IMG/VR virus record: IMGVR_UViG_3300045988_170943 | Span: 356,241-420,240 of that record | From: a virus | Length of the DNA: 64,000 nucleotides | Strand: one strand, 5' to 3' | Shown: positions 16,519-55,958 of the stretch, in pieces | Layout of the letters: the number at the start of each line of letters is the position of its first letter | Numbering within the stretch: the first letter of the stretch is position 1 | Notes under the pieces: model-generated | What the model saw: the letters and a program-made list of their open reading frames with translations, nothing else | Told to the model about the DNA's origin: nothing | Database searches by the model: none | Made by a program: the position numbers and the translations under genes

Positions 16519-16620
16519 CAGAAACTACCCAAGTATATCCGCGCACACCCCGGAAGTCAAGGGATATTCCACCGCAGACACCTCACCTACCACACCAAGA
16601 CGGAAGAGGCAACACAACCA

Positions 16621-29205: not shown

Positions 29206-29353
29206 AGCACCCTAACCACAACCCCTGTACGCATCCGCCTTTCGGCCTGTTCTCAACGATCTTCTGAGGGCAGGCCGACATGCTTCATGATAGAATATGT
29301 GCGAGAGCAAGAACATCAAGGGCAGCAAGCCCACGCGCACCGAGGAGCCGCAC

Positions 29354-30328
29354 ATGAGCGACCAACTCTTCACCAAAGCCCCCTTCATCAGCCATGACGG
29401 CCCGGACGCCCAAGGGGTGCGGGCGGAGGTCAAAGTATATACTGGGCACTCAACCATCAAGGAGTTCGAGGACGGGGAGAAGAGTCTCAAGATCAGTTTC
29501 CTGAACCCGAAGTCCAAGTACCTGACTAACGGGTACCTGTGGAAGCGAGACGAGAAACTAGTCGAGATATTTCAGCGGGCACAGCAAGATGAGACCCCGC
29601 TGTGGTTCCGTATCGAGCAGCCAAGGAAGGACGGAATTGACCGGTCTACCCCTATCTCCGAACTTCTCCCGCCAGGAGACACTAAGGCCGCCCGCGATAA
29701 CTCTCACCGTCGTGTCGCCGCACTGAAGATCAACGAGGGTGACGAATGGACGTTCAGTTCTATGGCTCTAACAAACCCGGCCGAAGATCCAGTGGTGGAC
29801 GGAGTATACAGTGCTCTGAACTACACACCCCCTGCCTCAACTTCCGCTCCAGCAGCCAGCGACCGGTATGCGTCACAACGTCTTGAGAACCCCCCATATA
29901 TGACGCTCAACCCGGACGGTACGATCAACCCTGGCGGCCCGCTCGTTGCGTCACTACTGAGTCTCGCTAACTTCTTGTTCGAGTGGAACCGCGATCATGA
30001 CGACATATCCTTAAACGAGGGTCAGGTCCGGTATTTGTCCTGCAAGATGCTTGAAATTGCGAATAGATTGCAACTGATGATCTACCGTGGCGCGATGGTC
30101 AAGCCAGACTACTCAATCGGATCCCACACGCGCGCTAAAGCAGCCATTTACGACACAATCCGTAACTACCATCCGATCACAGCAGAGTCCCTGAAAAGCA
30201 AGGATTCGGTTGCTGAGTGGCTACAAAATGTTGAGGAAACAGCAGGAGAATGTTTCGTCTGGGCTATGAGTATGGCTGAGACGTTCCACCCCAACGCCAG
30301 CCATAGCGAAAGCCGCAGCGAGTTGTAA
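29354..30328 (+). CDS. hypothetical protein
   Basis: ORF with RBS gaggag. Start taken at MSDQLF. No recognisable motifs. Confidence 0.5.
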   Translation: MSDQLFTKAPFISHDGPDAQGVRAEVKVYTGHSTIKEFEDGEKSLKISFLNPKSKYLTNGYLWKRDEKLVEIFQRAQQDETPLWFRIEQPRKDGIDRSTPISELLPPGDTKAARDNSHRRVAALKINEGDEWTFSSMALTNPAEDPVVDGVYSALNYTPPASTSAPAASDRYASQRLENPPYMTLNPDGTINPGGPLVASLLSLANFLFEWNRDHDDISLNEGQVRYLSCKMLEIANRLQLMIYRGAMVKPDYSIGSHTRAKAAIYDTIRNYHPITAESLKSKDSVAEWLQNVEETAGECFVWAMSMAETFHPNASHSESRSEL

Positions 30329-30484
30329 ACGTTATCAACTCGGGGCGCCCCAGAAAGTTTTATCGGACTTTCTGGGGCGCTCTTAGTTTTGCCGTAAAAC
30401 GCCCGATATTGGCAGGCGACTTTACTGGCACAACTGATGACGATATAGAAAACCGCGGCATCAGAACGTTTCTAGGTGATGTAA

Positions 30485-30787
30485 ATGACATTCGTTGACA
30501 ACATTCGTACCGTCTTCTCTGCTGATGTTGCGGACGATCCAGATCGTGGTGACTTGGTTCAGACAATCATCATCACGGCAGGTTTCGCTCTTGCTGGATA
30601 CCTGATGATTAGCTGGATTTCAACCGCTATCCTCAACAAGGGTGCAGACATTGCCTCCTGTATCGAGGGCTCCAGTTCGTCGGCTGGCGCTAAGGCTAAC
30701 AGTGCCGCTTGCGCTAAGAACCACGCATCCGAGAAGTCGAACTCCTTCAGTAAGTCTGACGGTTACAAGGGCCGCTACGGGAACTGA
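30485..30787 (+). CDS. Flp/TadE-type prepilin-like protein
   Basis: 27-aa polar leader ending DPDRG, followed by hydrophobic TIIITAGFALAGYLMISWI, then a Ser/Ala/Lys-rich tail. First gene of the Tad-like module and followed by a strong terminator. Confidence 0.4.
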   Translation: MTFVDNIRTVFSADVADDPDRGDLVQTIIITAGFALAGYLMISWISTAILNKGADIASCIEGSSSSAGAKANSAACAKNHASEKSNSFSKSDGYKGRYGN

Positions 30788-30806
30788 CCTAAGCGAACCC
30801 GAACTC

Positions 30807-30858
30807 ATCGACTACACAAGAGGGGCACCTGGTTGGTTTTACTGCCACCAGGTGCCCC
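30807..30858 (+). terminator. rho-independent terminator after the pilin-like gene
   Basis: 16-bp stem aagaggggcacctggt / accaggtgcccctctt. Confidence 0.6.
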
Positions 30859-30998
30859 TCTTGTTGCAGCAACCTCTCAATAAACACTGTGTCAGCACAC
30901 CTTCAAAGCACATTAAACAACCAGATATAGAAATAGCCCCTGGGTTTTCGCTGATATTCCGCCGGTATTCCTGATGTTTTCGCAAGTAGAGGACCGGC

Positions 30999-31907
30999 AT
31001 GAACATAGATAATCCAGTGACGCTATCTGTCCTGTTCACACTTTTTGTCGGCCTCATCGTGTATGACCGTCTCATCCCTAAATCAGGTAGACGGTTCTCT
31101 GACGGCACTGGTGACGCTTCCAGGCGCAATCCCTTCCTGAAGTTCGTCACTGCTATGGGTGACGACATCTACGCGGCCATGCCAGCCTCTCTTGACAAGG
31201 GAAGGGAACAGAGACAGTACCCCAGGATCGAGTCGCTACTGAAACGATCCGGCAACCCGTGGGGGCTGACCCCCAGGGAGTTCGTGTCACTGAAGTTCGT
31301 TGCCGGAATCCTCGGGTTTGTCATCAGTTGGCCACTATGGCTGGGACTGAACGCCATGACCGGACTCCCATGGTGGGTCGTCGTCATTGTCGTACCAGCG
31401 TTCTGCTACATGATCCCCACCATCAAGCACACTGAACTGGCGAAGACACGAGACCTGGAGTTCAAACGACAGTTGCCAGAGGCCCTGGACCTCATCACCA
31501 TTACCCTGTCCGGTGGTAGTACTCTATCCCAGGCAATCCGTGACGTCATCCCCACTATGCAGAAAGGTATCCTCAAGGGTGAGTTCATCAACATGGTGCG
31601 TATCATGGACGCTGGAGGTACACTCAAGGAGGCTCTAGACGAGTTCGCCAACCGCGCCCCCAGTGATGGGATCCTGACATTCGTGCGTTCCGTCCAGTCG
31701 GCCGCCGAGGTCAACGCGCCCATGAACGAGATTCTTGAGGCCCGAGCCGAGGCGTCTAGGCAGGAGTTCTTCGCCCTCGTGCATGAGAAGGCAGCCCAGT
31801 TGGAGTCCAAGATCTGGATCATCCTGTCGCCAACCATGCTACCGGCCCTCATCATCATCTCTGTGGCCCCGTCCGTCAACGCTATCATCGAGATGCTAGG
31901 ACAGTAA
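30999..31907 (+). CDS. tadB: TadB/TadC-family inner-membrane platform protein (T2SS-F domain)
   Basis: LPEALDLITITLSGGSTLSQAIRDV, LDEFANRAPSDGILTFVRSVQSA, flanking TM helices. Confidence 0.7.
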   Translation: MNIDNPVTLSVLFTLFVGLIVYDRLIPKSGRRFSDGTGDASRRNPFLKFVTAMGDDIYAAMPASLDKGREQRQYPRIESLLKRSGNPWGLTPREFVSLKFVAGILGFVISWPLWLGLNAMTGLPWWVVVIVVPAFCYMIPTIKHTELAKTRDLEFKRQLPEALDLITITLSGGSTLSQAIRDVIPTMQKGILKGEFINMVRIMDAGGTLKEALDEFANRAPSDGILTFVRSVQSAAEVNAPMNEILEARAEASRQEFFALVHEKAAQLESKIWIILSPTMLPALIIISVAPSVNAIIEMLGQ

Positions 31908-31976
31908 GACACCACGCCAACCCCACAAAGACTGCAACAACCAGCACAAGGCTACACCACTACCACAGGAGCCCAG

Positions 31977-33695
31977 TTGTCACTCATCAGCACACCACTC
32001 ACCAGCACCAGCAGGCCGGATGCTGGGCGAGCCTCCATGCCTGGCCGACAGCGCATCACCCGCCCCACAGGAATGGGCCCAAAGCCAGCATTCTTCGCCC
32101 AATCTTCAGCGGACATGGCAGACGCCAGCGACCGCATGTTCAGTGACCTCATAGCCGACGACGAACTCACCACCAGCCACAACCCCACACAGTACACGAC
32201 CGGCAACGACCCATACTCCCGCACTCTGGACGCATTTGACAACCGACGCAAGCAAATCATCCAGGAAGACCCCTCAGGCGGCATCAAGACCTACTGGTTC
32301 ATGACAACACGCGACCTCATGGACGCCCCAGCAGACTTCTTTGACAAGTATGCGCCAGCAGTCGAGGCCGGGATCACATTCGTGCGCAACCGACTCACCG
32401 ACACCGGCCAGTCCGACCTCGTGAGACAGGCACAGGACCACCCCACAGACGAGAGCAAACAGAACCAAGCATTCTACGCAGTGCACTCGCTCGCCTCCGA
32501 GTCCCTGGCGAACTCCTCCTGGAGAAACATCCACCGGTCCATCGTCATCAGCCTCATCATCGCAGAAGTCATCGGTTTCGGTGTCCTTGACCCACTATGG
32601 CGCGACAGCACAGTCACCGAGATCATGTGCAACGGCCCCAAGGACGTGCAGGTCGAGATCGCCGGTGAGGTCTACAAGGTGCCCTGCCTGACATTCCGGG
32701 ACAGCAACCACCTCAACGACCTCATTGAACGCCTGTACCGCTCCATTGGTAAAGTCCTGTCCCAGTCCACCCCTAGAGTCAAGGGGCGCCTACACGACAA
32801 GTCCAGAATGTTCGCCGTCCACACATCAGTAGCCCCCGACGGCCCGAACCTCAACATCAGGCGACACCCCGAAGGTTTCTGGACCCCTGAGGCCATGGTG
32901 CATCGCGGGGCGGCCAGCCAGGAAATGATGACCTACATTGGGAACCTCATCCACAAGGGCGCATCCTGTTTCGTCGTCGGATCCACGTCGTCCGGTAAGA
33001 CATCCATGTTGAACGCCTTCACCGGGTTCTACGCACCGAACGCCAGGATCCTCACCCTTGAGGACAACCTGGAGATGAAACCCAACCCGAAAAAGTTCCT
33101 CGCTGCCGCCATGGAATGCCGTATCCCCAGCACGACAGACAGTGCGACAGCAGGAACCAGCATGCGTGACCTCGTGCACGCAGCCATGCAGATGCGACCC
33201 AACGCCATCATCGTGGGTGAGGTCACTGACAGCGCCGCCTATGACCTCTGCCAAGCCCTCAACACCGGCCACATGGGCATGAGCACGTTCCACGCTAACT
33301 CATCCCAACTATCCATCACCCGTATCTGCTCTCTCGTATCCCAGTCCGGCCTAACCACCATCGAGGGAGCCACAGACCTCGTTGCGGCCGCCTTCGACTT
33401 CATCGTCAACGTCCGCCACTTCCCTGTGGACGGCTCCCGCCGCATCGTATCCGTCGATGAGGTCGGTATGGAACCCATCGAGATCAACGGCCGCCTCACC
33501 CTCCCAGTACGCCAGTTGTGGAGGTTCGTTGACGAAGGCACCAACCACGAAGGGAAAGTCACAGGCCACTGGGAGCAGGTTGGAGACATCTCCCCTGAGC
33601 GCAGACACGCGAAGATGCTTGACCTGGAACGGGACCTGACATGGCCACAGTTGAAGGACCTGAGCAGCCTACCTGAAGGAGCACTAGAAGCATGA
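31977..33695 (+). CDS. tadA: CpaF/TadA-type secretion ATPase (T2SS-E/VirB11 family)
   Basis: Walker A GSTSSGKTS, Asp box, IIVGEVTDSAAYDLCQALNTGHMGMSTFHANS (His box). Confidence 0.8.
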   Translation: MSLISTPLTSTSRPDAGRASMPGRQRITRPTGMGPKPAFFAQSSADMADASDRMFSDLIADDELTTSHNPTQYTTGNDPYSRTLDAFDNRRKQIIQEDPSGGIKTYWFMTTRDLMDAPADFFDKYAPAVEAGITFVRNRLTDTGQSDLVRQAQDHPTDESKQNQAFYAVHSLASESLANSSWRNIHRSIVISLIIAEVIGFGVLDPLWRDSTVTEIMCNGPKDVQVEIAGEVYKVPCLTFRDSNHLNDLIERLYRSIGKVLSQSTPRVKGRLHDKSRMFAVHTSVAPDGPNLNIRRHPEGFWTPEAMVHRGAASQEMMTYIGNLIHKGASCFVVGSTSSGKTSMLNAFTGFYAPNARILTLEDNLEMKPNPKKFLAAAMECRIPSTTDSATAGTSMRDLVHAAMQMRPNAIIVGEVTDSAAYDLCQALNTGHMGMSTFHANSSQLSITRICSLVSQSGLTTIEGATDLVAAAFDFIVNVRHFPVDGSRRIVSVDEVGMEPIEINGRLTLPVRQLWRFVDEGTNHEGKVTGHWEQVGDISPERRHAKMLDLERDLTWPQLKDLSSLPEGALEA

Positions 33696-34651
33696 CCATC
33701 TCAACTATCTTCCCCTACCTGGTGGCGTTGGGCCTGACCACCTCCATCGGCATCATCGGGCTCATCGTCTATCTCGTGTGGCGCACCAGCCACAACGATG
33801 AAGAGTACGACTCCCAGTTGGCTGAACTTCTCAGCGACGACGTGGAAAGCGAACTGGGCAACTCCTCCACGAACGTCACCTACTGGTCCAGATGGTGTGA
33901 CTACTGGTCCCAGACGCTCCGTGGTGCGGGCGTGGACCGGTACTCCGTTGACGCCACCACAGCGGGCCGAGATGTCACCGTACTTCTGGCTACGATTGGT
34001 GTGATTGTCGGCGTCATCGCCAACAACATAATCCTGGGGGTGATCGCCACCGTCGTGGCTGGTACGGGGCTCTCCATGCTCATGAGGTACCGCTACAACA
34101 ACAAGAACGAGGATCTGAACTTGCAGATCCCTGGGTTCCTGTACTCCCTGAAGGCAAACATCCAGGCTGCGGACACGAACGAGCGGGCACTGCTGAAAAT
34201 CATCCCGTCCATCCCTTCCCCCTTGTATGATGACCTGAAGGTTGCTGAGTCAGTTCTCCAGTCTGGTGACACGTTCAAGGAGGCGATGGAGACAATGAGC
34301 GCGAAAACCACGTCCAGGGATCTTCAGTTCCTCTGCGCGTGCATGATCCAGGCGTCCGCCAGCGGCTCTAGCATGGTCACCCAGATTGACAGCATCCAAA
34401 GGGTCCTTGAATCTCGTCGTAAAGTATCCGATGAGATCAACCGGTCTGTGAAAGCGGTACAGCCAGCCATCTGGCTCGCCTCCGTCATTATCCCAGCCCT
34501 GTTCCTGGGCTCTTACTTCAGTGACTCTGCCGCACAGGGTTTCTGGTTCGTAACCCCCATGTCATGGGCGGCGCTAGCCTTAACGGCCATCCTGTACGCT
34601 ATTGGCCTGGTGATGACGAAGCGGCAGGTTGACAAGATCAGAAACATGTGA
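33692..34651 (+). CDS. tadC: TadC/TadB-family platform protein (T2SS-F domain)
   Basis: N-terminal TM, KEAMETMSAKTTSRDLQFLCACMIQASASGSS, C-terminal TM pair. Start overlaps the upstream stop. Confidence 0.7.
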   Translation: MTISTIFPYLVALGLTTSIGIIGLIVYLVWRTSHNDEEYDSQLAELLSDDVESELGNSSTNVTYWSRWCDYWSQTLRGAGVDRYSVDATTAGRDVTVLLATIGVIVGVIANNIILGVIATVVAGTGLSMLMRYRYNNKNEDLNLQIPGFLYSLKANIQAADTNERALLKIIPSIPSPLYDDLKVAESVLQSGDTFKEAMETMSAKTTSRDLQFLCACMIQASASGSSMVTQIDSIQRVLESRRKVSDEINRSVKAVQPAIWLASVIIPALFLGSYFSDSAAQGFWFVTPMSWAALALTAILYAIGLVMTKRQVDKIRNM

Positions 34652-34846
34652 CCTACCCCCAGCCATCAACATGTGTTGAACCTGAGTGGTTAATACAAAC
34701 ACCTCAGCCGTTGCTCTTACAGACAAGGCTGGGGTGTTTCTGTTGCCTCTTTGTAGGCAGAATAAGGGCGTCGATATGTGTGCGCACGACATCACGTGCA
34801 CAACTCTACAGACATGCGAACTTCACACTAAAGAACGGACACAACT

Positions 34847-35464
34847 ATGACAACAGGTGTTGGCAAAAACAGGGTAGGGACCCACAGGAGACTGGAGTTC
34901 ACCGTGGGACAGAAAAGCATCTTCAACACCAACATGAACATCAAGCACTACATGCAGAAAGCAAAACTGGTTGACACTATCCGCGCCATGGGAGCCAAAG
35001 CCGGTGCAGAAGCACACCCAGACAGAGAGACGGTAGAAGCCAGGCTTGATGCGTTACGACAGGAGCGACGCCTCGCTGCACGTAAGACCAGCACCATGAA
35101 GAAAATGATGAAACGAGGCGCCAGTCAGGAGGAGATCGACAAGGAGATGCAGGAGATTACCGAGTCCCTGTCGCCCTCCAAGCCCAGTAGTCGCATCCAG
35201 GCAACCCCACTATTCACCACATTCAAGATAACCATGACCGTCCACCCGCCGACACGCAGACGACTGGACCCACCCAACCTGTCCCCCACCCTCAAAGCCC
35301 TCGTAGACGGGCTCACAGACGCCTGCTGGTGGGACGACGACGACTACCGGCACCTTGTTGAGACCTCATTCCGTTACGGCGGCCTATCTGGTACCCCCGG
35401 AGAGTGGAGAATCGTCCTGGACGTGGAAGAAGTAGACCCCAGCGGATACGTCACCAGCAACTAG
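34847..35464 (+). CDS. RusA-like Holliday-junction resolvase domain protein with N-terminal extension
   Basis: RRRLDPPNLSPTLKALVDGLTDACWWDDDDYRHL matches the RusA D-x-D-N-x-x-K / DDD pattern. Confidence 0.5.
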   Translation: MTTGVGKNRVGTHRRLEFTVGQKSIFNTNMNIKHYMQKAKLVDTIRAMGAKAGAEAHPDRETVEARLDALRQERRLAARKTSTMKKMMKRGASQEEIDKEMQEITESLSPSKPSSRIQATPLFTTFKITMTVHPPTRRRLDPPNLSPTLKALVDGLTDACWWDDDDYRHLVETSFRYGGLSGTPGEWRIVLDVEEVDPSGYVTSN

Positions 35465-35617
35465 AGTCAAAACACCTACCCCAAGAAACAGGGATGCAAC
35501 CCACCCACACTTCCAAGGCAGGGGATAGATTATCGACTGCTGCCAGACGGAAGGATATTGAAAACCTATGAGAAACTACCACGATTCGCTTACTAGATGT
35601 GACGAAAGAAGGTCGCC

Positions 35618-36073
35618 ATGGGTGGAATAGTCGTCGCAAACTTCACGAACATGTTCAAGCGACGCATCCTTCTGTACTCGCTCGGTGATCTTAGGCTCAA
35701 CGCCCCCATATCCCTGAAGAAGGTCGGATACATCATCTTCTTCATTGTCATATACACGGCACCCATCATCTACTTCAACGGGATCGTGCTCAAACCATGG
35801 TTCCTGTTACTAGTGTTTGTGCCGCCGCTCCTCCTAGGTAACTACGCGGCCGAACCGATCTGGGCAGGAAGAAACCTCCTGGACTTCACCACAGTGTACA
35901 TAAAGTTCGCCACCTCCCCAAAGTACTGGTGCGACCTGAAAGCATGCGACGACCTCATGGTCAACCAGAAGGACAAGAGTGGTACCAGTGAGCCAGTCCA
36001 CTACGAGATCTGGGTAAGCCGACGTCGCGAGATCGCTGAACTGAAAGCACTCTACGCCGAAGAGAACCTGTAA
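35618..36073 (+). CDS. membrane protein, hypothetical
   Basis: Two to three TM helices. Confidence 0.45.
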   Translation: MGGIVVANFTNMFKRRILLYSLGDLRLNAPISLKKVGYIIFFIVIYTAPIIYFNGIVLKPWFLLLVFVPPLLLGNYAAEPIWAGRNLLDFTTVYIKFATSPKYWCDLKACDDLMVNQKDKSGTSEPVHYEIWVSRRREIAELKALYAEENL

Positions 36074-36140
36074 TAGCCTCCAGGGGTCTCAAAACTTTCA
36101 TCGCACACTACCACACTGACTGCATGGAGCAAACACTTAC

Positions 36141-37346
36141 ATGGCATACAAGTATAACTCATCACTGTTTCTGGGCGAGACGCTTGGGGGAAAACCCAGC
36201 CCAGTGTTCTTCGATCCGCACACATGCATCCTGAATAACCGACCGCCCACGACAGTCATCACAGGCGGCCCTGGCTCCGGAAAGACCTACATGCTGTTGA
36301 ACCTGGTGGCCCAGTCTGCCATCCTCGGCAAGGCGTGCGTCTTTTTGGACCCTAAAGGTGACGCCCTCGGTCTTCAGGCGCTTTCCAAGGATCTCGGCAA
36401 CCTGAAGTTCTGGAACCTCGCCGGACGAGGACAGAAAGGCATCCTAGACCCGTTCCAGATGCCCATTGATCATGAGAGCCAGCGGCTCGAACTCATCATC
36501 AATACTGTGGAGATGTTCGTCGGAAACATCACTGAAGACCAGAGAACAAGGCTCGGAGCCATCGTTGAAGACGTCATGCGCGAGCAGGTACCATCCCTGC
36601 TGCGTGTCGTTGAAGTCATGATCATGCACCGAGAGAGAGACGTCCGTAACCTTGGGAACCGGCTGAGCCTGATCTCAAAGATGAAGTTCGCCAACTTGTG
36701 CTTCGCCCCTGGCCGTAAGGGATTCAAGCCGCTCAGCCTGGACAGTGGTGTCACCATCGTCACCATGCCCGGCCTGAAACTCACAGTAGACAGCAAGGAC
36801 GGCATGTCGGGTGAGGAGCGAATCTCAGCCACCATATTCTTCCTTCTGACCAGCATGATCAACGGGATGCTCTACTCCTCTGACGTGTCTATGCGCAAGA
36901 TCCTGATCATCGACGAGGCGTGGGCAATCGCTGGTAACTCTGCTGGGTCCAAGGTCATTAAGGCGGTAGCAAAACTGGGGCGATCCAAGAACATGGCTGT
37001 CATACTCGCCAGCCAGAACCAGAGTGACCTCATGGGGGAGGACATTGATACCACCATATCCACACGATTCGCGTTCGCTACCGACTACAAGGAGGCCGCG
37101 AACATCACAAAGGCTATGCGACTCCCCACAGGGCAAGGGTTCGAACAAATCCTGACCTCTCTGAGCCCGGGCGAGTGCCTGATGGAGGAGAGTACCAGCG
37201 ATGATGGGCGCAGTCGTTACTCCACAATGAAAGCCGTTGTCATCTCCCCCAGGTGGGACGAGGCTTTCAGAACCAACCCTGAAGACGTGCGCGCAAGAGA
37301 AAAGAAGAGACGCAAACAGGCGGCAGCAAAAAAGAATCCTACCTAA
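36141..37346 (+). CDS. VirB4/TraG (AAA_10)-like P-loop ATPase
   Basis: Walker A TVITGGPGSGKTYML, Walker B KILIIDEAWAIAG, ILASQNQSDL, basic C-terminal tail. Confidence 0.6.
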   Translation: MAYKYNSSLFLGETLGGKPSPVFFDPHTCILNNRPPTTVITGGPGSGKTYMLLNLVAQSAILGKACVFLDPKGDALGLQALSKDLGNLKFWNLAGRGQKGILDPFQMPIDHESQRLELIINTVEMFVGNITEDQRTRLGAIVEDVMREQVPSLLRVVEVMIMHRERDVRNLGNRLSLISKMKFANLCFAPGRKGFKPLSLDSGVTIVTMPGLKLTVDSKDGMSGEERISATIFFLLTSMINGMLYSSDVSMRKILIIDEAWAIAGNSAGSKVIKAVAKLGRSKNMAVILASQNQSDLMGEDIDTTISTRFAFATDYKEAANITKAMRLPTGQGFEQILTSLSPGECLMEESTSDDGRSRYSTMKAVVISPRWDEAFRTNPEDVRAREKKRRKQAAAKKNPT

Positions 37347-37367
37347 AAATAGGATCGACATAACTGC

Positions 37368-37408
37368 TACACAATCCTGAGGAATCCCCGATATTCCTCA
37401 GGATTTTA
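37368..37408 (+). terminator. rho-independent terminator
   Basis: Stem aatcctgaggaat/attcctcaggatt followed by ttatttcg. Confidence 0.65.
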
Positions 37409-37437
37409 TTTCGCCTGACACAGAAGGAAGCGCCCCG

Positions 37438-38283
37438 ATGGCCGCAATCAGCAAAGTGAACAGAAGGAAGAAGACTAACCGTTTTCTCACTGGAATGGTA
37501 GTCGTCGTACTAGCGCTCATACTGGTCGGCTCATCCATGATCATGCGTAAGTTCTTCGAGACAGAAACCTACTACACGTTGAAACAGGACATCCCAGCAC
37601 ACACCCAGATCACCCCGGACATGCTGGAGCCAAAACAAGCACCCACCGGGTCTATCCCCTTCGAAAATTTAGTCACCCTCGCAAAAGTCCAATCAGACGA
37701 CCCTAAGGATGCAGTATTCTCCTCAGTTGCCCTCAAGGCCGGGGACATGGTGCCAAATTCAGTCGTTACCACCGGAAGTGAAGACCTCAAAAAGCAAATC
37801 CCTGAGGGCTGGGTCATCACCAACTTCAGTGTCAGCGCAGACAACGCCGTCGGCGGGCGCATCAAGAACGGTTCATACTTTGACATCCTTGTCGCCACAT
37901 CAGATGGCGCATTCTACCCGTTCCTCAACGTGAAGGCCCTCGACACCACTGTTGACCTGTCCAACGCCTCCTCATCTGACGCTGTTGATACTGAGGAGGC
38001 GCACGCCGGGCAGACCACGCAGTACACGGTTGGGCTCACACCGGAGAACGCATCCAAACTCCAGTCCATCATGAGCCAGTACAACGGCAACGTCAAACTG
38101 GTTCTGTCCAATGGTGTCAGCGACCCTGCCACTCACCAGCCGACAGGATCATTCGCCGGTAACGCCCCCGCCCCACTGTCAGTCAGCCCTGACACCGACA
38201 ATGGCGGCCAGGCCCCAGCATCCCAGCAGCAGGAAAAGCCCTCCGCGTCAGGGAATCAAGACCAGCGGGCCGAGAACAAGTAA
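37438..38283 (+). CDS. cpaB: CpaB/RcpC-like Flp pilus assembly protein (SAF domain)
   Basis: N-terminal TM anchor, SAF-like LKAGDMV, AVGGRIKNGSYFDILVA, Ser/Gln-rich tail. Confidence 0.6.
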   Translation: MAAISKVNRRKKTNRFLTGMVVVVLALILVGSSMIMRKFFETETYYTLKQDIPAHTQITPDMLEPKQAPTGSIPFENLVTLAKVQSDDPKDAVFSSVALKAGDMVPNSVVTTGSEDLKKQIPEGWVITNFSVSADNAVGGRIKNGSYFDILVATSDGAFYPFLNVKALDTTVDLSNASSSDAVDTEEAHAGQTTQYTVGLTPENASKLQSIMSQYNGNVKLVLSNGVSDPATHQPTGSFAGNAPAPLSVSPDTDNGGQAPASQQQEKPSASGNQDQRAENK

Positions 38284-38308
38284 CTAGGGATCTCCTGAGT
38301 CGATATAG

Positions 38309-38355
38309 TAAGGGTACCGAAAGTTGCAAAACAATCGGTACCCTTACACTTTTCT
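38309..38355 (+). terminator. rho-independent terminator
   Basis: Stem taagggtaccga/tcggtaccctta followed by cacttttct. Confidence 0.6.
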
Positions 38356-38409
38356 ACCACCAAATGTCAACACCCCAATAGTGTTGATCGTTGAAAGCAA
38401 GGGATACTA

Positions 38410-39837
38410 TTGGCTACTAGTATTATGCGCCCAAGAGCCATGTTTGTTGGACCAGAGCAGGTCTCAAACGTCATCAGGGACCACGCATGCCCCGACTGGG
38501 ACTGGTACCGGGTAGACACACTACAGGACGTTATAGCGGGATCACGAGACGGCGACGACTACTCCGACATCAACATGATCATTCTTGTTGACAGAATGTT
38601 CGAGAAGGAGTTCAACCCGGAACGCGAGTTCGAGACCATCGTCGCCTCATTCGGCACCAGCAAAATCGTAACTATCCTCCAATACAACAGCAGTCTCCAG
38701 TACAACATTGAGAACTCAGTGGCCGCCTATGCGAAAGACAAGGGGATCGGCGATGTCTCCATGAACTTCGTTGGAGCGGACTACGAATCGGCCATACCCC
38801 GCATCATCCACAACTACGTCAACGACCCCTATGCTGACGACTGGAACAAGGCAGTCATCAGCAACCGTGTCACCATCGACGAGAACGGCCAGGTTGTCAG
38901 CATCGCAGCCGACGAAACTACCGGTGAGGAGTGGGACGACGGCAGCAACTACTTCGAGGAGCAGGTAGACGACACCCAGTACCTCGGCCAGATCATCGCC
39001 GTCACCTCCAGCAAAGGCGGGTCAGGTAAGTCCACCGTCGCCGTCACTCTAGCCTCCTACCTGGCACACTCGTCCATGAGGTCAGTGGAGACCGGGGCGG
39101 TTGACAGGCCCCTGAAAGTCGCTATCCTCGACCTAGACATTGAAGACGGCCAGATCGGGTTCATTGCGGGCAGCATCCAGCCGACCATCCTGAACATGCG
39201 CACCCGGGGTATCTCGCAAGCCGCGTTTGAGGACACTGTTATCAAGAGCAAGCGGCTTGGTGTTGACCTCATCCTAGCCCCCAAGCGGCCACGCTCCAGT
39301 GCTGACACGCCACCTCAGTTCTACCGCGAGGTGATCGACTTCCTCAAGCAGCGGTACGATTACGTGATTCTGGACACTTCTGTACGCTACATGGATCCCC
39401 TTCTGGAGCAGGTGGCGTACCCCATGGCTGACGCCATAGTTTTTGTTACCGACATTGTGATCCAGTCCGTGATGTCTATGACACGGTGGGTGCAGGAGGT
39501 GACCTGGCCGGTAGAGAAGAACGGCATGGGGATCCCGGCATCCAAGATCGGTCTCGTGGTCAATAAGGCCATCGCTGATGTGCACATGAACGGGACTCGT
39601 ATCGCTAAAGCCGCTCCGGGCGTCGCCGTCGTTTCTGTGATCCCCAATAATGCGAAACTGATGGCTCACGCCGCTAACCTTCAGGCAATGCAGGTTGTTT
39701 TGAATCATCCAGAGATCCGCAAGTCATACAAGCGAATAGCAGATGCCATCATGGGTAAACGTTACGACAAGCACCTAGTGGATACCACCAAGGGCGAACG
39801 CTACAAGTTAAGTGACGACTTCAAGGTCACCACATAA
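38410..39837 (+). CDS. cpaE: CpaE/TadZ-like ParA/MinD-family ATPase with N-terminal receiver-like domain
   Basis: Deviant Walker A VTSSKGGSGKSTVA, LDLDIEDGQ, final gene of the Tad-like module. Confidence 0.7.
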   Translation: MATSIMRPRAMFVGPEQVSNVIRDHACPDWDWYRVDTLQDVIAGSRDGDDYSDINMIILVDRMFEKEFNPEREFETIVASFGTSKIVTILQYNSSLQYNIENSVAAYAKDKGIGDVSMNFVGADYESAIPRIIHNYVNDPYADDWNKAVISNRVTIDENGQVVSIAADETTGEEWDDGSNYFEEQVDDTQYLGQIIAVTSSKGGSGKSTVAVTLASYLAHSSMRSVETGAVDRPLKVAILDLDIEDGQIGFIAGSIQPTILNMRTRGISQAAFEDTVIKSKRLGVDLILAPKRPRSSADTPPQFYREVIDFLKQRYDYVILDTSVRYMDPLLEQVAYPMADAIVFVTDIVIQSVMSMTRWVQEVTWPVEKNGMGIPASKIGLVVNKAIADVHMNGTRIAKAAPGVAVVSVIPNNAKLMAHAANLQAMQVVLNHPEIRKSYKRIADAIMGKRYDKHLVDTTKGERYKLSDDFKVTT

Positions 39838-43418: not shown

Positions 43419-45830
43419 CTACACGGCGACCTGAGTCAGTTCCAAAGGCTTACCATCCATACCCATAATGCGCTCAACCTTCACCGCATCCCTGAGGAAG
43501 GCCGCCCCCGACTTGAAGAACCCCCTGTCCCGAGGATTAGGTTCACGCTTCGCCCGGTTCTCAAACTCTACAGCCACAGACTCCACACACTCACTGATGA
43601 ACCTGCCCAAAGAGTCAGACACCACCAGGTAGCGGACCTCCCCATACGCGAACCACCCCGACCAGGCATAGTTTCTGAGCACCTTCTTCAACGCGCTACC
43701 CTGTTTACGAGTCAACTCGATCTCATATGCGATAGACCTAGCCCGACCATTCTTGTCCCGCACATCATAACGCATAATAAGGTCTGGCTGATGGTACGAC
43801 GAGTACTTATCCTTCTCATCATCCTTCGCGCACGGTACCCACAGCATCGGATACTTCTCCATGATGCCGTCACGTAACCCACTCGACAAGTCCTGGTATG
43901 CGTCAAGCATCTGCTCACGATACCTCACCAGACGTTCATCTCTCGACAAGGTGACACCAGAGCAGTTGCGCTCCATCCACCGCTCATTCACAAAGAACGC
44001 GGGCATAAACCCATGCAACTTACACTCGCGGGCAACAGTGTACGAAACCATAGCATTATGTGCGCCACGCTCAGTCATACGCGCACCCTTACGGGCACTA
44101 CGCACCTTAATGTTGTCAAAATCCACGCCAGACCTGTTATCCCGGAGCACCTGAAGACCCTTGCTCTTCAACCGGTAAATACTCTTACCACCAAGGAACA
44201 CGGTATCACTGATAATCAGGCCCATCTCCGCCAAACCAAGAAGACGCTTCGGCGCAGACTTCGGAGCCTTCAAACCCAGAATCGTCTGCACACTCCTAGC
44301 AGTAGCGGAACCAGACACAGCAATCAGTTCCAGCACCAACAAATCCTTCTGAGTGATCTTTGACCGATGATACTTCTTTCTCGGATTCCGCTTCTTCCTA
44401 CCTGAGACAGTCTCGCCACGACGCTGCCTGTGCCGCAGATCCGCCTCCTGAGCCTTACTACGCACAGGGAACTTCACATCAGGAGCGAACTCCTGCCGCA
44501 TGTACTCGCCAGTGTCAGAAGGAAGCGGCTGCAACCCCTGACCAGGCTTCTTCGGCGGAGGACGGTACCCCTTCATAAACGGCTTATTCTCAGGATTCAG
44601 GATATGCGGGTCAGTGACACCAACCAGATTCGGGTCAACTGGTTTCTTAGGTCGAGGCCGCTTAGGCTTCTGATACTGAACCACATACTTGCGATCCTCC
44701 AACACGTTCACATCATCAGTACCCAGACCAGCAGGCTCAGGACGCGACTCGCCACCACTGAGAGACAAGCCCCCGCCAGTAGACACACCGCCGGATCGCC
44801 CCCCGTCGTTTACTCCACTACGAGATTGCGCACCATTAGCATCTCCTCGACCACTACTGTCACGACGGAACCCACCCGAACCAAGACCAGCACCCACAGT
44901 GAGACCAGCAGTTACAGCAGGTTCCTGTGGGCTTCCCTGAACGCCACCACGACCATCACCCGCGCCACTGCCCGCAGCGCGCACACGACCCGAACCTTGC
45001 ACCTCACCATCAGGAGAAACGGGCCGCCTATCAGACGTTGAGCGGCCACCCGAGGCTACACTACCAGTGGGACGACGGCCTTCCCCCAACTGCGGGCGAC
45101 CACCGCCCTGAACCCCACCTACTGGCCTCTCATGATGTATAGCAGGCCTCGAAGCGCCTTCGCCCCCACCCGAGGTGCCCACGCCAGCACCATTACCAGC
45201 AGTCCCATGAGGAGCAGTGCGACGCTCAGGGTAAGAGTGACGAGAACTTCCCCCGTCCCCTACAACACCACCCTGAGCCCTCACGGGGCGGGCACCGCCA
45301 GCAGGAGATGCAGGGCGAGAGCCACCTCCCATGCCAGAGGTAACACCCTGCCTGACAACAGGTCCACCACCAGCCATACGACTTCCGCCACCCTGTGACT
45401 GTCGGACACCCATTGGGGCGACACCACCATGCGGTAGATCGCGGCCACGCACACTGTCACCCTTCACCACACCACGGGCGCTGTCGTTACCCCCAGGGTT
45501 GGACCTACCAAGAGACCCCACACCCCTAGGATGACCGCCTCCCCCACGCGACGGCACCACACCAACACCAGCCCCAGTAGGTCGCCCAGCGCCTCTTGCG
45601 TCACCCTGTGGCCGGGTGGGGGAAGCCTCGTCGTCACTGAGCAGGTCACTCATCATGTCATCGAGAAGATCATGCTCCACCTCAGCAGGCACGCCAACAG
45701 TACTACGTGCCGGGCCGCCATTAGTGCCAGAGACAGTCGGGCGCATGGGGCGGCTCACCCGGCTACGGTCACGGAAACTATTACGTGCGCCATCACGGCC
45801 AGGCTCATCAGTCACAAGCACACCCTCCAA
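43419..45830 (-). CDS. replication-relaxation-family-like (wHTH plus PD-(D/E)xK-like) protein with about 400-aa Gly/Arg/Ser-rich disordered N-terminus
   Basis: C-terminal LVLELIAVSGSATARSVQTIL (wHTH) and DLIMRYDV...AYEIELTRK (D...E-x-K). N-terminal low complexity. Confidence 0.4.
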   Translation of the reverse strand: MEGVLVTDEPGRDGARNSFRDRSRVSRPMRPTVSGTNGGPARSTVGVPAEVEHDLLDDMMSDLLSDDEASPTRPQGDARGAGRPTGAGVGVVPSRGGGGHPRGVGSLGRSNPGGNDSARGVVKGDSVRGRDLPHGGVAPMGVRQSQGGGSRMAGGGPVVRQGVTSGMGGGSRPASPAGGARPVRAQGGVVGDGGSSRHSYPERRTAPHGTAGNGAGVGTSGGGEGASRPAIHHERPVGGVQGGGRPQLGEGRRPTGSVASGGRSTSDRRPVSPDGEVQGSGRVRAAGSGAGDGRGGVQGSPQEPAVTAGLTVGAGLGSGGFRRDSSGRGDANGAQSRSGVNDGGRSGGVSTGGGLSLSGGESRPEPAGLGTDDVNVLEDRKYVVQYQKPKRPRPKKPVDPNLVGVTDPHILNPENKPFMKGYRPPPKKPGQGLQPLPSDTGEYMRQEFAPDVKFPVRSKAQEADLRHRQRRGETVSGRKKRNPRKKYHRSKITQKDLLVLELIAVSGSATARSVQTILGLKAPKSAPKRLLGLAEMGLIISDTVFLGGKSIYRLKSKGLQVLRDNRSGVDFDNIKVRSARKGARMTERGAHNAMVSYTVARECKLHGFMPAFFVNERWMERNCSGVTLSRDERLVRYREQMLDAYQDLSSGLRDGIMEKYPMLWVPCAKDDEKDKYSSYHQPDLIMRYDVRDKNGRARSIAYEIELTRKQGSALKKVLRNYAWSGWFAYGEVRYLVVSDSLGRFISECVESVAVEFENRAKREPNPRDRGFFKSGAAFLRDAVKVERIMGMDGKPLELTQVAV

Positions 45831-46046
45831 GAGTTAAGAAAACAAGCGGGCAACAATCCAGACATTCTACACTATATTACCCCAAAACGCCAGCGGCACA
45901 AGAAAAGAAGCCCAAGCGACGACACCGCGACCCAACATCACGTACACTCCCGGTCACAAGAAAACCAAACCCATAGCACCCAGCCACGCACCATACAGAA
46001 CCCGTAAAGGAACCCACCCCTGTGCCCCATATCACACGGCACTGGC

Positions 46047-46544
46047 TTGACCAATGACGATCACGCGGCATACGATCAGGCCAGATCCAAACAAGCCAAC
46101 CCCAAGCAAGGAAGTTACGCCATGTGTAGCACAGACAACTACGACCTCATGATCCTCAAGATGTCCCAGTACTTCATGCGTCGAGCACGTGGCAAGTCCT
46201 ACCGGGTGCCAGACGAACTGAGCCTGATTTGCATGAAGGAAGACAACCCTGAAGAATGGGGCGACCTGATCCACGACCTCATCAACGAGGCACACCCATT
46301 CACTGACGAAGACGGAACATGGACCACCACCCACATGGGTAAGGAGGTCACCCACACCATCGGCTCCGACGAGGTTATGGCTGCCGCACGCTACGCACGA
46401 ACCATGCTGGAGATGGCAAACCGGGGAGACTACGCCCTCCTCCACCTCACGTCCGACACCTTGAGCAAGGCGCTGGACGACCTGTACAAGAAAGGCCGCC
46501 AGGACGCCCGCACAGCCCTAGCAGCAGAACAGGGACTCATCTAA
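46047..46544 (+). CDS. hypothetical protein
   Basis: 165-aa ORF of normal composition. Confidence 0.45.
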   Translation: MTNDDHAAYDQARSKQANPKQGSYAMCSTDNYDLMILKMSQYFMRRARGKSYRVPDELSLICMKEDNPEEWGDLIHDLINEAHPFTDEDGTWTTTHMGKEVTHTIGSDEVMAAARYARTMLEMANRGDYALLHLTSDTLSKALDDLYKKGRQDARTALAAEQGLI

Positions 46545-46733
46545 AAGAACCAAACGAAAACACACAGGCCCACATACCAGGTGAAACCACTAACCCCCGG
46601 CATGCGGGCCACAAGTATGTTCAAGAACCAGCAGGAACACAAACACCACACCTCACACCATGGGTGACACGCCAAGGCACTGCGCAACCAAGGCCACCTG
46701 CCCGCACAAAACGATGGGGCGCACAGTTAACGC

Positions 46734-47141
46734 CTAGAGTGGAAAAGACTCAGAAATCCTCATCCAGGTACATGTTTCCAAGTACATGTGACCCACCCCG
46801 TCATTGAAGTGCTTCACCCTGAGCATACGAGACTCACAAGACGGGACGCGGATCAGCACCTCACCATACACTACACCAGCAGGGTCGGGGTTAAACAGGA
46901 GTGTGTCACACAAGATCCCCTCCAGACGATCAGGGAGACTCCCGCTATAGTCCGCAAAGGAGAAGCGGACAGCAACCACCCCGTCGTCAACCTCCACAAT
47001 ACAGAGGTTCGTCCCATTCGGGTTAACCTCATTCACCCGCCCCACAAGCCACTCAGCACGCTTCACAGCCTCACTCTCAGGTAACCCAGACACGTACCCA
47101 TCAACCGACACTGGACGGTCAATCAACTCAACACTTCCCAT
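46734..47141 (-). CDS. hypothetical protein (start set at MGSVELI)
   Basis: C-terminal 135 aa has normal composition. The upstream extension is G/V/W-rich composition artifact. Confidence 0.4.
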   Translation of the reverse strand: MGSVELIDRPVSVDGYVSGLPESEAVKRAEWLVGRVNEVNPNGTNLCIVEVDDGVVAVRFSFADYSGSLPDRLEGILCDTLLFNPDPAGVVYGEVLIRVPSCESRMLRVKHFNDGVGHMYLETCTWMRISESFPL

Positions 47142-48843
47142 AACAGTGTCTCCCTTCCAGACGGAACCCAGTCCGTCCCAGGCAATCTCTTGCTTCGCTG
47201 GCAGTCCACTCGATCTACAGCACACCACCACCCACCAATATACAGGACAATACACCCAGAACACAACCACCCCAGACCATGCCATACCACCCCTGGCAAA
47301 CCCGACCGCCAGTGGCACACAAACAGCCCCAGGAAGACGCCCTCTGAGCAAGGCCACCCCATGCACTCACACCAACCCGAGCACAAACCAGGCGGCAGGA
47401 GCCACGAGAAAAACCAGGCTCACCTACAAGCCCCGCACGCACAACACCAAACATGCCCACCACCCAGAGTGGGAACATGCGCCTAACCCCCTGACGCCAC
47501 CTCCCCGTGTTCCCATGCCCCTGTAAGAGTGAACCAGACAAACGTTACCGCTACTATCATTGTTTACGACTAATCCGCACCCCCAAGAAACAAGCCACGC
47601 CCACACCAATTGAAACACCATGCTCACCCCATAGTTTCACGCTTGCCGCAACCAACCGGAACACCATCAGCACAGAAAAGCGGCAGAGACGAAAACGGAC
47701 GCAAGCCACAACAGCCACCGACCAGGAAAGGGGTCTAAACCCCTGTGCCGCAACACCCCATATACACACCACCCAGCACCATTCCCCCAAACAGAGTAAA
47801 CAGGGGTAAGAACACGACCCAGGATCGCAAGAAGCCGCATCCGGTAACCCAATCACGGTCACGGCCCCACCCTATAGAGATCGACACCGAACCCGCCTCA
47901 TGAGAATCACCCCCCTTGCGGCCACCTCAAAACAAACACAGGCCACGCACACGAACCCCACTCAACACGACAATACACCACCATACGCCATCACAAGAAC
48001 ATCAGGCAATAGTCCCGCACATGAACGCCCACCCCAAAGGCGACACAAATAACCAACCAGCACGCATGACAAGAACACTTGACACCCAGCCAGGAAGACA
48101 TCACATACATCCAAACAAGCCCGCAAACACACAAGACGAAGCAGCACCAAGACACAACACGCAGACATGCGCAAAGACAAGCACACTTTACACACCTACC
48201 ACATACCTGCACACCTCTCAAAAGGCATAGTCACCCAGGCAGCACACCGCCCCGCACAAACAATAGACACACACCCAGAAACAGGCACACAACAAACCCC
48301 AAGACCAACCCCCAAAACACCCATACACCCAGAACGCACAACCAAAAACCACAAAACCGCGCCATTCCAACGAAAAGTCCCAATAACATGTGAAGAAGGG
48401 GTTTCCTATACGGGTACCAAACCCCAAAATTTCCGCCAAGCAAAACCCACCCACTTGGTGTCTCGCGCTGCTGTCGCTGTTGTGGTGCTCGTCTCTGTCG
48501 TGTTTGTTGGTGGGTTTGTGCTTGCCTGCACGGGCGTTCGCTGGGGCTCTCTGTGCAGGGTGGGGGTTGGTCTTGGGGTTGGGTGTGGTGGTGTGCGCTT
48601 ACTGTCGTGATGAAGAGGCAGTGAGCGTGAGTGTGCGCATACTGTTTGGCTGTGTGGTGGATGGGTGTGCGCACATAGTGTCTGGGCGACTACTGCGCAA
48701 CAGGGGGCCAAACAGCCACAGGGGGTAAGGGGTTCAAGACAAAGGAGGAGGACGTAACCGTGCGCGTGGGGGTTGGGGGACTATTAACCCCTGACGGGTG
48801 CATAGGCGTGTGGCGGTACCTGGAGTGGTCACCTGCTACCTAC

Positions 48844-48864
48844 CGGCTGCGTTCACTGCGTTCA
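48844..48864. repeat. left copy (ggctgcgttcactgcgttcac) of a 21-bp perfect inverted repeat
   Basis: Partner is gtgaacgcagtgaacgcagcc at 49108-49128. Each copy is itself a tandem of gtgaacgca. Confidence 0.85.
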
Positions 48865-49006
48865 CTTCGCCTGGTTCCGGCATCGTGTTGGTTTGGGTTG
48901 TGGGTGGAGTCCTGGGTTGGGTTGTGGTTCTTGTGAGCAGTGTGTGGACAGTGTGGTGGCAGGTGTGCGCACATGGTGGCGGCATGGGGTGTGCGTGTGG
49001 GGTGGA

Positions 49007-55080: not shown

Positions 55081-55415
55081 GACAGGACTGTAGGTGGTGG
55101 GGCTGGTTGCCTGGGGTGGCGTGCCCTCTGAGTGCGGGATGCGGCTGCCAGGGGTGCAGGGTGGTGTGGGGTCGGGTGCTTGCTGGGTGTGGTGGGTCTC
55201 AGGGTAGGTTGGGTCCAGTGTGGGCTGCGCCCGGTGTGCTTGGTGCCAGCATGTTGGCGTGGGTGGCATTGTTGGGACTTGTTGCGAGGGTGGCGGCTAG
55301 TGCTGCATGTGGCCCAGTTCACTCACACTGGGGTTGCGTGGTGCTGGTGGCTGGGGTACGCTTGAGTCATCAGCCGGAGGGAAGAGCCTGACGGCGTGAC
55401 CTTAGAGGAGTCAAA

Positions 55416-55943: not shown

Positions 55944-55958
55944 TCATAGCCGCCTTTG

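Follow-up and report, generated by a model that had tools for sequence, protein, structure and literature searches.

In the Sulfolobales, DNA is imported by Ups pili together with the Ced system and its VirB4/HerA-like ATPase, CedB (10.1101/2024.09.27.615246, PMC11823120, PMC9905601), and in Liberibacter DNA uptake needs Tad pili (PMC8513845). The Inocles are giant plasmid-like extrachromosomal elements (ECEs) of oral Streptococcus, 245-395 kb in size and 24-32% in GC (Kiguchi et al. 2025, PMC12340149). Insertion sequences (ISs) are abundant in them, cell-surface genes are enriched, and Pol III and gyrase are encoded. They are cell-associated and absent from isolates; although found in 74% of people, they disappear in culture. 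All of them carry VirB4 and VirD4, and they have been interpreted as transmissible plasmid-like elements (PMC12340149). Both giant extrachromosomal elements and huge phages are widespread in the human mouth and gut. Here we analyse a cassette of Tad-type filament genes interleaved with genes of type IV secretion system (T4SS) kind, the most obvious candidate for a transmission or DNA-exchange apparatus of such elements, in a 64,000-nucleotide stretch (hereafter the window) of IMG/VR record IMGVR_UViG_3300045988_170943.

Nine open reading frames (ORFs), all on the plus strand, occupy positions 30485-39837 of the window, and the gene callers of the public assembly agree with them. As far as the sequence can tell, the base of the cassette is a secretin-less type IVc (Tad-like) machine comprising a prepilin-like subunit, TadB, TadC, CpaF, CpaB, a TadZ-like protein and a PilT-like ATPase; TcpE, a VirB4 C-terminal domain and a RusA-type protein sit, in operon-like fashion, within the filament transcription unit (Table 1). 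We tentatively interpret the whole as a hybrid type IV filament/VirB4 machine for contact-dependent DNA transfer, a reading that we regard as quite possible without calling it probable. The filament would make or tighten contact between monoderm cells, and the TcpE/VirB4-domain pair, acting on the same T2SSF platform, would power DNA translocation. The DNA moved could be the giant element itself or imported DNA, and the RusA-like nuclease might process recombination intermediates together with the neighbouring RadA and RecX. In favour of a link to DNA are the place of the block between GyrA/RadA and, in relatives, LigA/RecX/SMC, the FtsK-type translocase 15 kb upstream, the 'conjugal transfer-associated' TadA model as the best NCBIfam match of CpaF, and CedB among the matches of the VirB4 domain.

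Table 1. Cassette genes and hairpins, followed by other features of the window and its left flank
Feature	Position	Strand	Basis or description
Pilin-like (prepilin-like) subunit, 100 aa	30485-30787	+	Size, first place in block, leader, one helix, conservation
TadB-like platform protein, 302 aa	30999-31907	+	Pfam T2SSF 9.6e-12; 3-4 transmembrane helices
CpaF/TadA-type secretion ATPase, 572 aa	31977-33695	+	Pfam T2SSE 6.2e-27
TadC-like platform protein, 319 aa	33692-34651	+	Pfam T2SSF 5.6e-5; 4 transmembrane helices
RusA-fold protein, 205 aa	34847-35464	+	PHROG 34 1.9e-18; NCBIfam RusA 1.1e-3
TcpE-family membrane protein, 151 aa	35618-36073	+	Pfam TcpE 2.6e-9, above cut-off; hairpin of two transmembrane helices
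Stand-alone VirB4 C-terminal ATPase domain, 401 aa	36141-37346	+	AAA_10 2.9e-41
CpaB/RcpC-like bitopic protein, 281 aa	37438-38283	+	RcpC 6.6e-6; TIGR03177 CpaB 2.9e-11; N-terminal transmembrane helix
TadZ/CpaE-like MinD/ParA ATPase, 475 aa	38410-39837	+	AAA_31 7.1e-9; CbiA 4e-8; MinD 4.5e-13
PilT-family ATPase, 953 aa	40284-43145	-	Pfam T2SSE 4e-27; solved PilT 3.6e-40
Hairpin before pilin-like gene	30342-30383	+	19-bp stem, 10 G-C pairs, T-rich tail; strongest of the region
Hairpin after pilin-like gene	30817-30863	+	16-bp stem then TTG, no proper T-run; terminator- or attenuator-like
Hairpin after VirB4-domain gene	37373-37405	+	13-bp stem and T-run; intrinsic-terminator-like, closes the tadB...virB4 unit
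Hairpin after cpaB	38308-38347	+	12-bp stem, 16-nt loop, then TTTT
343-aa soluble protein	29297-30328	+	No family match; between RadA and pilin-like gene
tRNA-Thr (three), tRNA-Ser (one), tmRNA	within 192-4345		tmRNA tag ANSDNFALAA
CCA-adding enzyme (PolyA_pol) and Ro60/TROVE homologue	L127 1499-5382		Immediately left of window
DnaE-like Pol III alpha ORF, 498 aa	5861-7357	+	PHP domain and start of NTPase domain
FtsK_SpoIIIE protein (FtsK-like translocase)	15112-17715		Pfam 1.8e-11; PHROG 5.6e-32; 15 kb upstream of block
PD-(D/E)XK (Cas4/RecB-like) nuclease	18018-20003	+	Intein-bearing
TnpB (Cas12f-like TNB)	7468-9009	-	
TnpB (Cas12f-like TNB)	20850-22379	-	
TnpB (Cas12f-like TNB)	59239-61411	+	

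Gene content of the cassette

Profile searches against Pfam, NCBIfam and PHROG, in which about 85 ORFs of the window were scanned, together with comparisons of structure, back every domain call that the first-pass annotation had made for these same nine genes, save that its pilin can be called pilin-like only and is not a confirmed Flp pilin. The NCBIfam matches to CpaB, TcpF, TIGR03819 and Ssd all score under the curated cut-offs. The pilin-like protein has a charged leader of 22-25 aa ending in DRG, a hydrophobic helix at residues 24-42 (one transmembrane segment predicted) and a Cys59...Cys76 loop; it is conserved in seven lineages at 40-54% identity with both cysteines invariant. It matched nothing in Pfam (including Flp_Fap and Flp1_like), NCBIfam or PHROG, and its profile found nothing significant among solved structures, the solved Tad pilin PilA standing at E = 4.3. 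At the place of the Flp processing motif G/XXXXEY it reads DRG/DLV(Q/E)T, with no EY.

The remaining filament components were more readily named. CpaF carries an N-terminal extension of about 180 aa, and the whole family keeps the Walker A, Asp, Walker B and His boxes unchanged; the family profile matched the solved structures of Caulobacter CpaF (4e-79), VirB11 (2e-22) and PilT (9e-20), and the best NCBIfam model was TIGR03819, the 'TadA family conjugal transfer-associated ATPase' (9.8e-50). TadC scored 23.5 bits against T2SSF, 1.7 bits short of the cut-off of 25.2, and its orthologues in lineages L004 and L126 carry a recorded T2SSF (PF00482) match. For CpaB the RcpC score, like that of TIGR03177, is also under its cut-off, and the position of the gene in the operon is conserved. 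The TadZ-like ATPase, always last in the co-oriented block, matched the actinobacterial CpaE homologue Ssd (CpaE_hom_Actino, 5.6e-9); its N-terminal domain, of about 190 aa, belongs to no identified family, and its Walker A, SSKGGSGKST, is deviant.

The module does not end where the first-pass annotation had drawn its boundary, which left out the PilT-like ATPase. The gene for this protein is convergent with the block, which it also adjoins in L009, L010, L015 and L018. The L126 orthologue, 416 aa long and free of an intein, is encoded after tadZ and on its strand, so the ATPase belongs to the cassette; given this order and the convergent orthologue, the cassette has ten genes rather than nine. 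The protein in the window begins with an extension of about 230 aa that is acidic and of low complexity, and it has, directly after its Walker A GSGK, a 351-aa insertion (residues 384-734). We consider the insertion intein-like because the L126 orthologue lacks it, the tblastn alignment between the two being split into residues 236-383 and 735-945. The insertion closes with ...THN, after which comes TTT; its first residue is neither Cys nor Ser, and 'FWC' stands near its end; it may be a class 3 intein. Inteins also occur in the CpaF homologues P0006, P0016, P0031, P0108 and P0111 (894-997 aa) and in Pol III alpha of a distant gut clade, and they appear to be unusually frequent among these giant elements.

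Classical T4SSs pair a VirB11-type with a VirB4-type ATPase, which offers a parallel for the proposed machine. The cassette encodes three secretion-type ATPases (CpaF, the PilT-like protein and the VirB4 domain) and one of MinD type. TcpE is the VirB3-like partner type of Gram-positive VirB4 ATPases; in the relatives its gene is always immediately upstream of that for the ATPase, and on the Bacillus cereus plasmid pBCXO1 it adjoins VirB4. The ATPase itself, previously described as VirB4/TraG-like, keeps the first half of that name in part: it is the C-terminal domain of VirB4 alone, neither a full-length VirB4 nor TraG-like. Its best named NCBIfam model, TcpF (8.3e-24), is covered at profile positions 466-784 of 813; VirB4_CagE (2.8e-13) and CedB (1.5e-11, over about 70 residues only) also match. 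It aligns to the C-terminal half of VirB4-like proteins from Nocardiopsis (847 aa) and a B. cereus plasmid (685 aa), and the full-length VirB4 proteins of those plasmids sit beside TcpE, TcpC, a VirB6-like protein and a lysozyme. An AlphaFold2 (AF2) model with a predicted local distance difference test score (pLDDT) of 85 returned as its top Foldseek matches the Thermoanaerobacter VirB4 C-terminal domain 4ag5/4ag6, with template-modelling (TM) scores of 0.72/0.77.

The presence of the C-terminal half alone, with genes for VirB6, VirB8, a hydrolase and a relaxase missing nearby, would also suit a relic, namely the remains of a Gram-positive conjugation locus (TcpE and a truncated VirB4) that was inserted in an ancestral Tad operon and is now functionless. 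We hold this to be very improbable. The family numbers 161 homologues, of which the 120 listed are all metagenomic and all 376-415 aa long; an alignment of 31 sequences, down to 34% identity, retains 33 invariant columns including both Walker motifs (GGPGSGKT and LIIDEAW in the window protein). With its uniform length and invariant Walker A and B, the domain is no fragment in decay; its AF2 model is confident, and the TcpE/VirB4-domain pair has been kept in two deeply split clades.

The RusA-like protein has no Pfam match. Its AF2 model, built from 31 homologues (pLDDT 92), gave seven top Foldseek matches in the PDB that are all Escherichia coli RusA (prob 1.00, best E = 1.7e-5). It bears the motif RRRLDPPNL within a conserved core, RRR-D-x-x-N...DGLTDA..W.DD, and a helical insertion of about 80 aa that is absent from lineage L018 and from a prophage copy. 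That copy, which encodes 142 aa and lies between recT and terminase in a Streptococcus prophage, is the closest relative from outside the clade and has the same DPPN motif. Relative to E. coli RusA, D70 and D91 are kept and D72 is Pro in all 31 aligned sequences, which leaves the Asp triad incomplete; since the prophage homologue shares DPPN, the motif may mark a working RusA subfamily. The protein is a genuine member of a phage-type RusA subfamily, with putative nuclease activity.

The intrinsic terminators that had been placed after the pilin-like, ATPase and cpaB genes are all present as terminator-like hairpins, the first of them without a proper T-run; that one was read in the sequence and had been missed by a consensus terminator scan. 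A generic scan found 11 terminators against 9.3 expected from shuffled sequence, and because this is no enrichment we count only long stems as evidence. A further hairpin, the one preceding the pilin-like gene, follows the gene for the 343-aa protein and is predicted to isolate the pilin-like gene from upstream transcription. Strong hairpins bracket the stretch from tadB to the VirB4-domain gene, and no long-stem hairpin was found between these two genes. In compact relatives, tadC, rusA, tcpE, virB4 and cpaB lie 2-35 nt apart or overlap. The hairpin positions, together with a 4-nt overlap between the cpaF stop and the tadC start, point to these as the likely transcription units: the pilin gene; tadB-cpaF-tadC-rusA-tcpE-virB4 C-terminal domain; cpaB; and tadZ.

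Conservation among relatives and in a distant gut clade

When the loci of relatives are searched by tblastn with every protein of the window, the gene order in them runs from RadA through two further genes and a 320-aa protein to the pilin-like gene, TadB, CpaF, TadC, the RusA-like gene, TcpE, the VirB4 domain, CpaB and the TadZ-like gene. The hybrid order, a Tad platform with a T4SS-like ATPase as the first-pass annotation had proposed, is common to at least seven diverged lineages (L004-L020, L126) in which CpaF identity spans 42-98% and GC 27-56%; in L126 (37% GC) the cassette genes are 20-35 nt apart. Immediately before the cassette, all close lineages have the 343-aa protein, at 30-48% identity with 44 invariant columns. 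The contigs of cassette-bearing relatives measure 0.1-0.83 Mb and many are in IMG/VR, where we found 13 related contigs of 117-398 kb.

Outside this group, likeness falls away sharply. Database homologues of CpaF exceed 3,000; the best 120, at 42-99% identity, are without exception metagenomic, and several lie on contigs of 0.4-0.83 Mb. The best CpaF among 185,579 GTDB species genomes (one each) reached 33-37% identity, and the best in PLSDB plasmids or GenBank phages at most 35%; protein searches of phages and plasmids returned only such distant CpaF proteins or full-length VirB4 (at most 32%). No near-identical DNA was found for the module and window positions 1-25000 in GenBank phages, or for the module in PLSDB. 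Homologues of the VirB4 domain, TcpE and RusA occur in none of 97 other CpaF neighbourhoods (80 from GTDB and 17 distant ones from IMG/VR; 1.58 Mb). Among the data searched, the cassette thus appears restricted to this giant-element family.

Two other sources were considered and rejected. Bacteria with small genomes, for example Saccharibacteria, do not account for the 0.4-0.83-Mb contigs: no close CpaF exists in GTDB, the ORFs are mostly unmatched and no ribosomal genes were found. The best phage CpaF match, in 'Microcystis phage MaAM05' (GenBank MW495066.1, L118), was discarded since the DNA in which it lies looks bacterial; the Tad-like region there has a secretin gene and is flanked by trxB, thiL, ispD and ruvA, and this stretch resembles bacterial chromosome rather than phage.

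A far clade, with 35% identity in the VirB4 domain and indexed in 398 blocks, is highly prevalent in gut metagenomes and has 44% GC. Its contigs measure 0.2-0.6 Mb (L120-L124 are ENA scaffolds of 209-285 kb, and the same protein lies on contigs of up to 597 kb). Here a pilin-like protein of 88 aa comes first, then TadB (T2SSF; still 31.5% identical), an extremely acidic protein of 698 aa, TcpE and the VirB4 domain. Six unknown proteins come next, among them a polytopic membrane protein of 286 aa; the set sits between Pol III alpha/SNF2 and 5'-3' exonuclease/RecA/DnaG. No CpaF, TadC, CpaB or TadZ was found within 10 kb. That just the pilin-like protein, TadB, TcpE and the VirB4 domain have stayed side by side over the greatest evolutionary distance speaks for a joint function of these four. 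With the 97 neighbourhoods that lack such partners and the uniform VirB4-domain family, it indicates that the filament and T4SS parts belong together. The 286-aa protein was entertained as a prepilin peptidase by eye and dropped, having neither Pfam support nor a homologue in the window; identity of the clade with the large extrachromosomal elements of Segatella copri (PMC10635906) found no support, there being no PLSDB match.

These patterns bear on a simpler explanation, in which the cassette is a Tad-type pilus for adhesion or aggregation only, a fitness trait of the conversion type that would help the host to attach to surfaces or form biofilms in dental plaque, with RusA, TcpE and the VirB4 domain as unrelated neighbours. 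We judge it unlikely on balance, while granting it real merits: all canonical Tad core proteins are present bar the peptidase and minor pilins, the pilin-like gene forms a separate, hairpin-bracketed unit as an abundant subunit might, the habitat is the human mouth, and the Inocles are enriched in cell-surface genes (PMC12340149). It leaves unexplained why TcpE and the VirB4 domain lie inside the operon in every lineage, why such partners are wanting in all 97 other CpaF neighbourhoods, and why the gut clade should have kept exactly the pilin-like/TadB/TcpE/VirB4 set with no CpaF nearby.

A number of observations weigh against a machine for DNA transfer. Scanning of the window ORFs found no prepilin peptidase (TadV/CpaA, Peptidase_A24, PF01478) and no TadE/TadF minor pilins (no match to TadE, PF07811); with the Flp EY motif also lacking, filament assembly by the cassette is unproven, and the Tad module cannot be called complete, as it once was. 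The same scan found no secretin, in agreement with the first-pass annotation. Neither were VirB6-like, VirB8-like (TcpC), peptidoglycan hydrolase or relaxase genes found among the window ORFs; all four adjoin VirB4 on pBCXO1, and without them the canonical conjugation channel is missing. The candidate for an FtsK/VirD4-type coupling protein, the FtsK_SpoIIIE protein, is encoded at a distance from the cassette. The RusA-like protein lacks the second catalytic Asp of the E. coli enzyme, and it may just belong to the surrounding replication and recombination genes. In giant phages and ECEs, genes may keep a frozen order even when they are not functionally linked. Finally, we infer rather than observe four elements of this reading: a physical link between the Tad and VirB4 components, DNA as the substrate, the direction of transport and a monoderm host.

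Genomic setting and nature of the element

The window corresponds to positions 285,074-349,073 of a 418,686-bp metagenome contig (ENA ERZ27262911 k119_16908), the offset being calculated from the coordinates of the locus, and a near-identical contig carries the label human oral metagenome. That the block is part of the mobile or giant element, as had been proposed, is borne out. The contrary view, an ordinary host-chromosome Tad locus beside a mobile element, is refuted, with nothing found in its favour. The block lies inside the contig, at least 32 kb from either end of the window; it is flanked by GyrA/RadA on one side and, in relatives, by LigA/RecX/SMC on the other, and these flanks are conserved; GC composition is unbroken across the whole window (56% for the element); and no GTDB species has a CpaF more than 37% identical.

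The element may be a phage or plasmid-like. The first-pass annotation had seen a phage setting, in which lysogenic conversion was suggested; that idea is pure conjecture. The 64-kb window and about 20 kb of its flanks (some 84 of 418 kb) yielded no gene for a capsid, portal, tail or terminase. PHROG matches to 'terminase' were rejected as intein segments in the PD-(D/E)XK exonuclease and the PilT-like ATPase. In the former, a match of about 70 residues (approximately 204-277) to very long 'terminase large subunit' profiles is probably the N-terminal segment of the intein.

A device that acts during infection in the life cycle of a huge phage, whether for export or import of DNA or protein across the envelope, for superinfection exclusion through remodelled or retracted host pili or for non-lytic spread, seems to us a decidedly unlikely explanation. 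The absence of structural and terminase genes is joined by the absence of any relative among 50,697 GenBank phage records and by the size of some related contigs (670-828 kb); the oral look-alikes are cell-associated and were judged plasmid-like (PMC12340149). We found no Tad machine in the literature on huge and jumbo phages, and a 2026 jumbo-phage review mentions no role for one. Phage-like features exist nonetheless: 13 related contigs stand in IMG/VR; tRNAs, a tmRNA, a CCA-adding enzyme, Ro60, MazG, dCMP deaminase, NrdD, MT-A70 and inteins are encoded; most ORFs are unmatched; the nearest outside relative of the RusA-like protein is in a prophage; and the proteins closest to the DnaE-like polymerase are from actinophages, at 36% identity.

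The contigs of 670-828 kb that bear the cassette are L005 (JGI 3300031088, 727,571 bp), L006 (JGI 3300062451, 828,236 bp), P0039, P0107 and P0119. These lengths could be true sizes, concatemers or assembly artefacts; 828 kb is about twice 414 kb. We know of no complete phage genome as large.

Features that point towards a plasmid-like element are the lack of structural genes in the fifth of the genome that was read, an origin-like switch in strand composition, the T4SS-type genes, the FtsK-like translocase, the great size of some related contigs and the strong likeness to Inocles. The switch lies near 48500 (region about 44000-56000), 8.6 kb to the right of the block. There GC skew moves from -0.40 to +0.40 (maximum +0.70) and AT skew from +0.53 to -0.35 (minimum -0.72), magnitudes that far exceed those in the rest of the window and fade within about 7 kb on each side. 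It coincides with a change from minus- to plus-strand genes and with two 23-bp tandem repeats (48122-48179 and 48940-48994), and it looks like a replication origin.

Elsewhere the window encodes dCMP deaminase, a MazG-like enzyme, a clamp loader, NrdD, GyrA, RadA, RecX and MT-A70, and the majority of the remaining ORFs are without any family match. The tRNAs and tmRNA at its left end, with the CCA-adding enzyme and Ro60 just outside, form an RNA-maintenance island. A TnpB gene on the opposite strand directly follows the DnaE-like ORF, which may be split or disrupted by an IS or may be a short DnaE (PHROG 7513, 461 positions). With a further TnpB at L119 15797-17329, at least four TnpB genes occur in about 75 kb, one of them paired with a serine resolvase (IS607-type), and on this count the element is IS-rich, like the Inocles.

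Comparison with known systems

The Inocles offer the closest comparison for the element. Shared with them are the human mouth habitat, a similar size (245-395 kb vs 394-418 kb here), richness in ISs (three TnpB genes in the window), Pol III, gyrase and exonuclease genes of the element's own, a majority of unknown genes, absence from isolate genomes and VirB4, which all Inocles carry and of which the C-terminal domain is found here. They differ in GC and host, with 24-32% GC and Streptococcus as against 56% GC here, and no Tad or pilus module is mentioned for them in PMC12340149. The Inocle marker InoC (replication-relaxation domain, PF13814) was not found in the window. The likeness is drawn from the published description, and kinship with Inocles is a lead, not a result.

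With temperate-phage RusA the RusA-like protein shares its fold and conserved core, and its prophage homologue stands at the classic position between recT and terminase; the insertion of about 80 aa, the change of D72 to Pro and the location inside a pilus/secretion operon set it apart. With the Gram-positive Tcp/ICEBs1 T4SSs (Clostridium perfringens pCW3, B. cereus pBCXO1) the cassette shares TcpE directly upstream of a VirB4-family ATPase, the likeness of that ATPase to TcpF and the fold of the VirB4 C-terminal domain. Here, however, the N-terminal half of VirB4 is absent (401 vs 685-847 aa), no TcpC/VirB8, TcpH/VirB6, hydrolase or relaxase lies nearby, and the neighbours are T2SSF proteins instead.

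Monoderm Tad/Flp systems, represented by actinobacterial and clostridial loci with Caulobacter CpaF as structural reference, share with the cassette the CpaF motor, two T2SSF proteins, a CpaB-like protein, a TadZ/CpaE-like ATPase and a small leader-bearing subunit with one hydrophobic helix, and the lack of a secretin. Against these likenesses stand profile scores that are all under the NCBIfam cut-offs, a subunit with a Cys-Cys loop and no EY motif, a window without peptidase or TadE/F, an extra PilT-family ATPase, and RusA, TcpE and the VirB4 domain inside the operon. The parts themselves are of known kinds; their Tad-VirB4 combination occurs in none of the ordinary bacterial Tad loci examined.

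It is tempting to go further and to envisage a new class of envelope machine, in which a VirB3-like protein and a free VirB4 domain are docked on a T2SSF platform beside CpaF and PilT motors, forming a pilus-guided conduit through which elements of 0.2-0.8 Mb would pass between Gram-positive members of the human microbiome, or DNA would be imported; such a machine would be a bacterial Ups/Ced counterpart and a missing link between type IV filaments and type IV secretion. We offer this as speculation and think it rather doubtful as stated. Were it true, the pairing of a stand-alone VirB4 C-terminal domain with T2SSF would show that type IV filament and secretion modules are recombinable. The conservation of the hybrid cassette in all sampled relatives provides a concrete target, and the AAA_10 protein of about 400 aa and the clade-specific CpaF are usable as metagenome markers for such elements.

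For the hybrid filament/VirB4 machine that we tentatively favour, the nearest functional parallel would be the archaeal DNA-exchange pair of the Ups pilus and Ced, with its VirB4-like CedB, of which the cassette would be the bacterial counterpart. Both bring together a filament set (ATPase, T2SSF platform, pilins), a VirB4/HerA-like ATPase and small membrane proteins, which in Ups/Ced serve DNA exchange for recombinational repair. The likeness is an analogy of parts and not orthology: Ups and Ced are separate loci on archaeal chromosomes, whereas here a single operon of a giant element holds the components in interleaved order.

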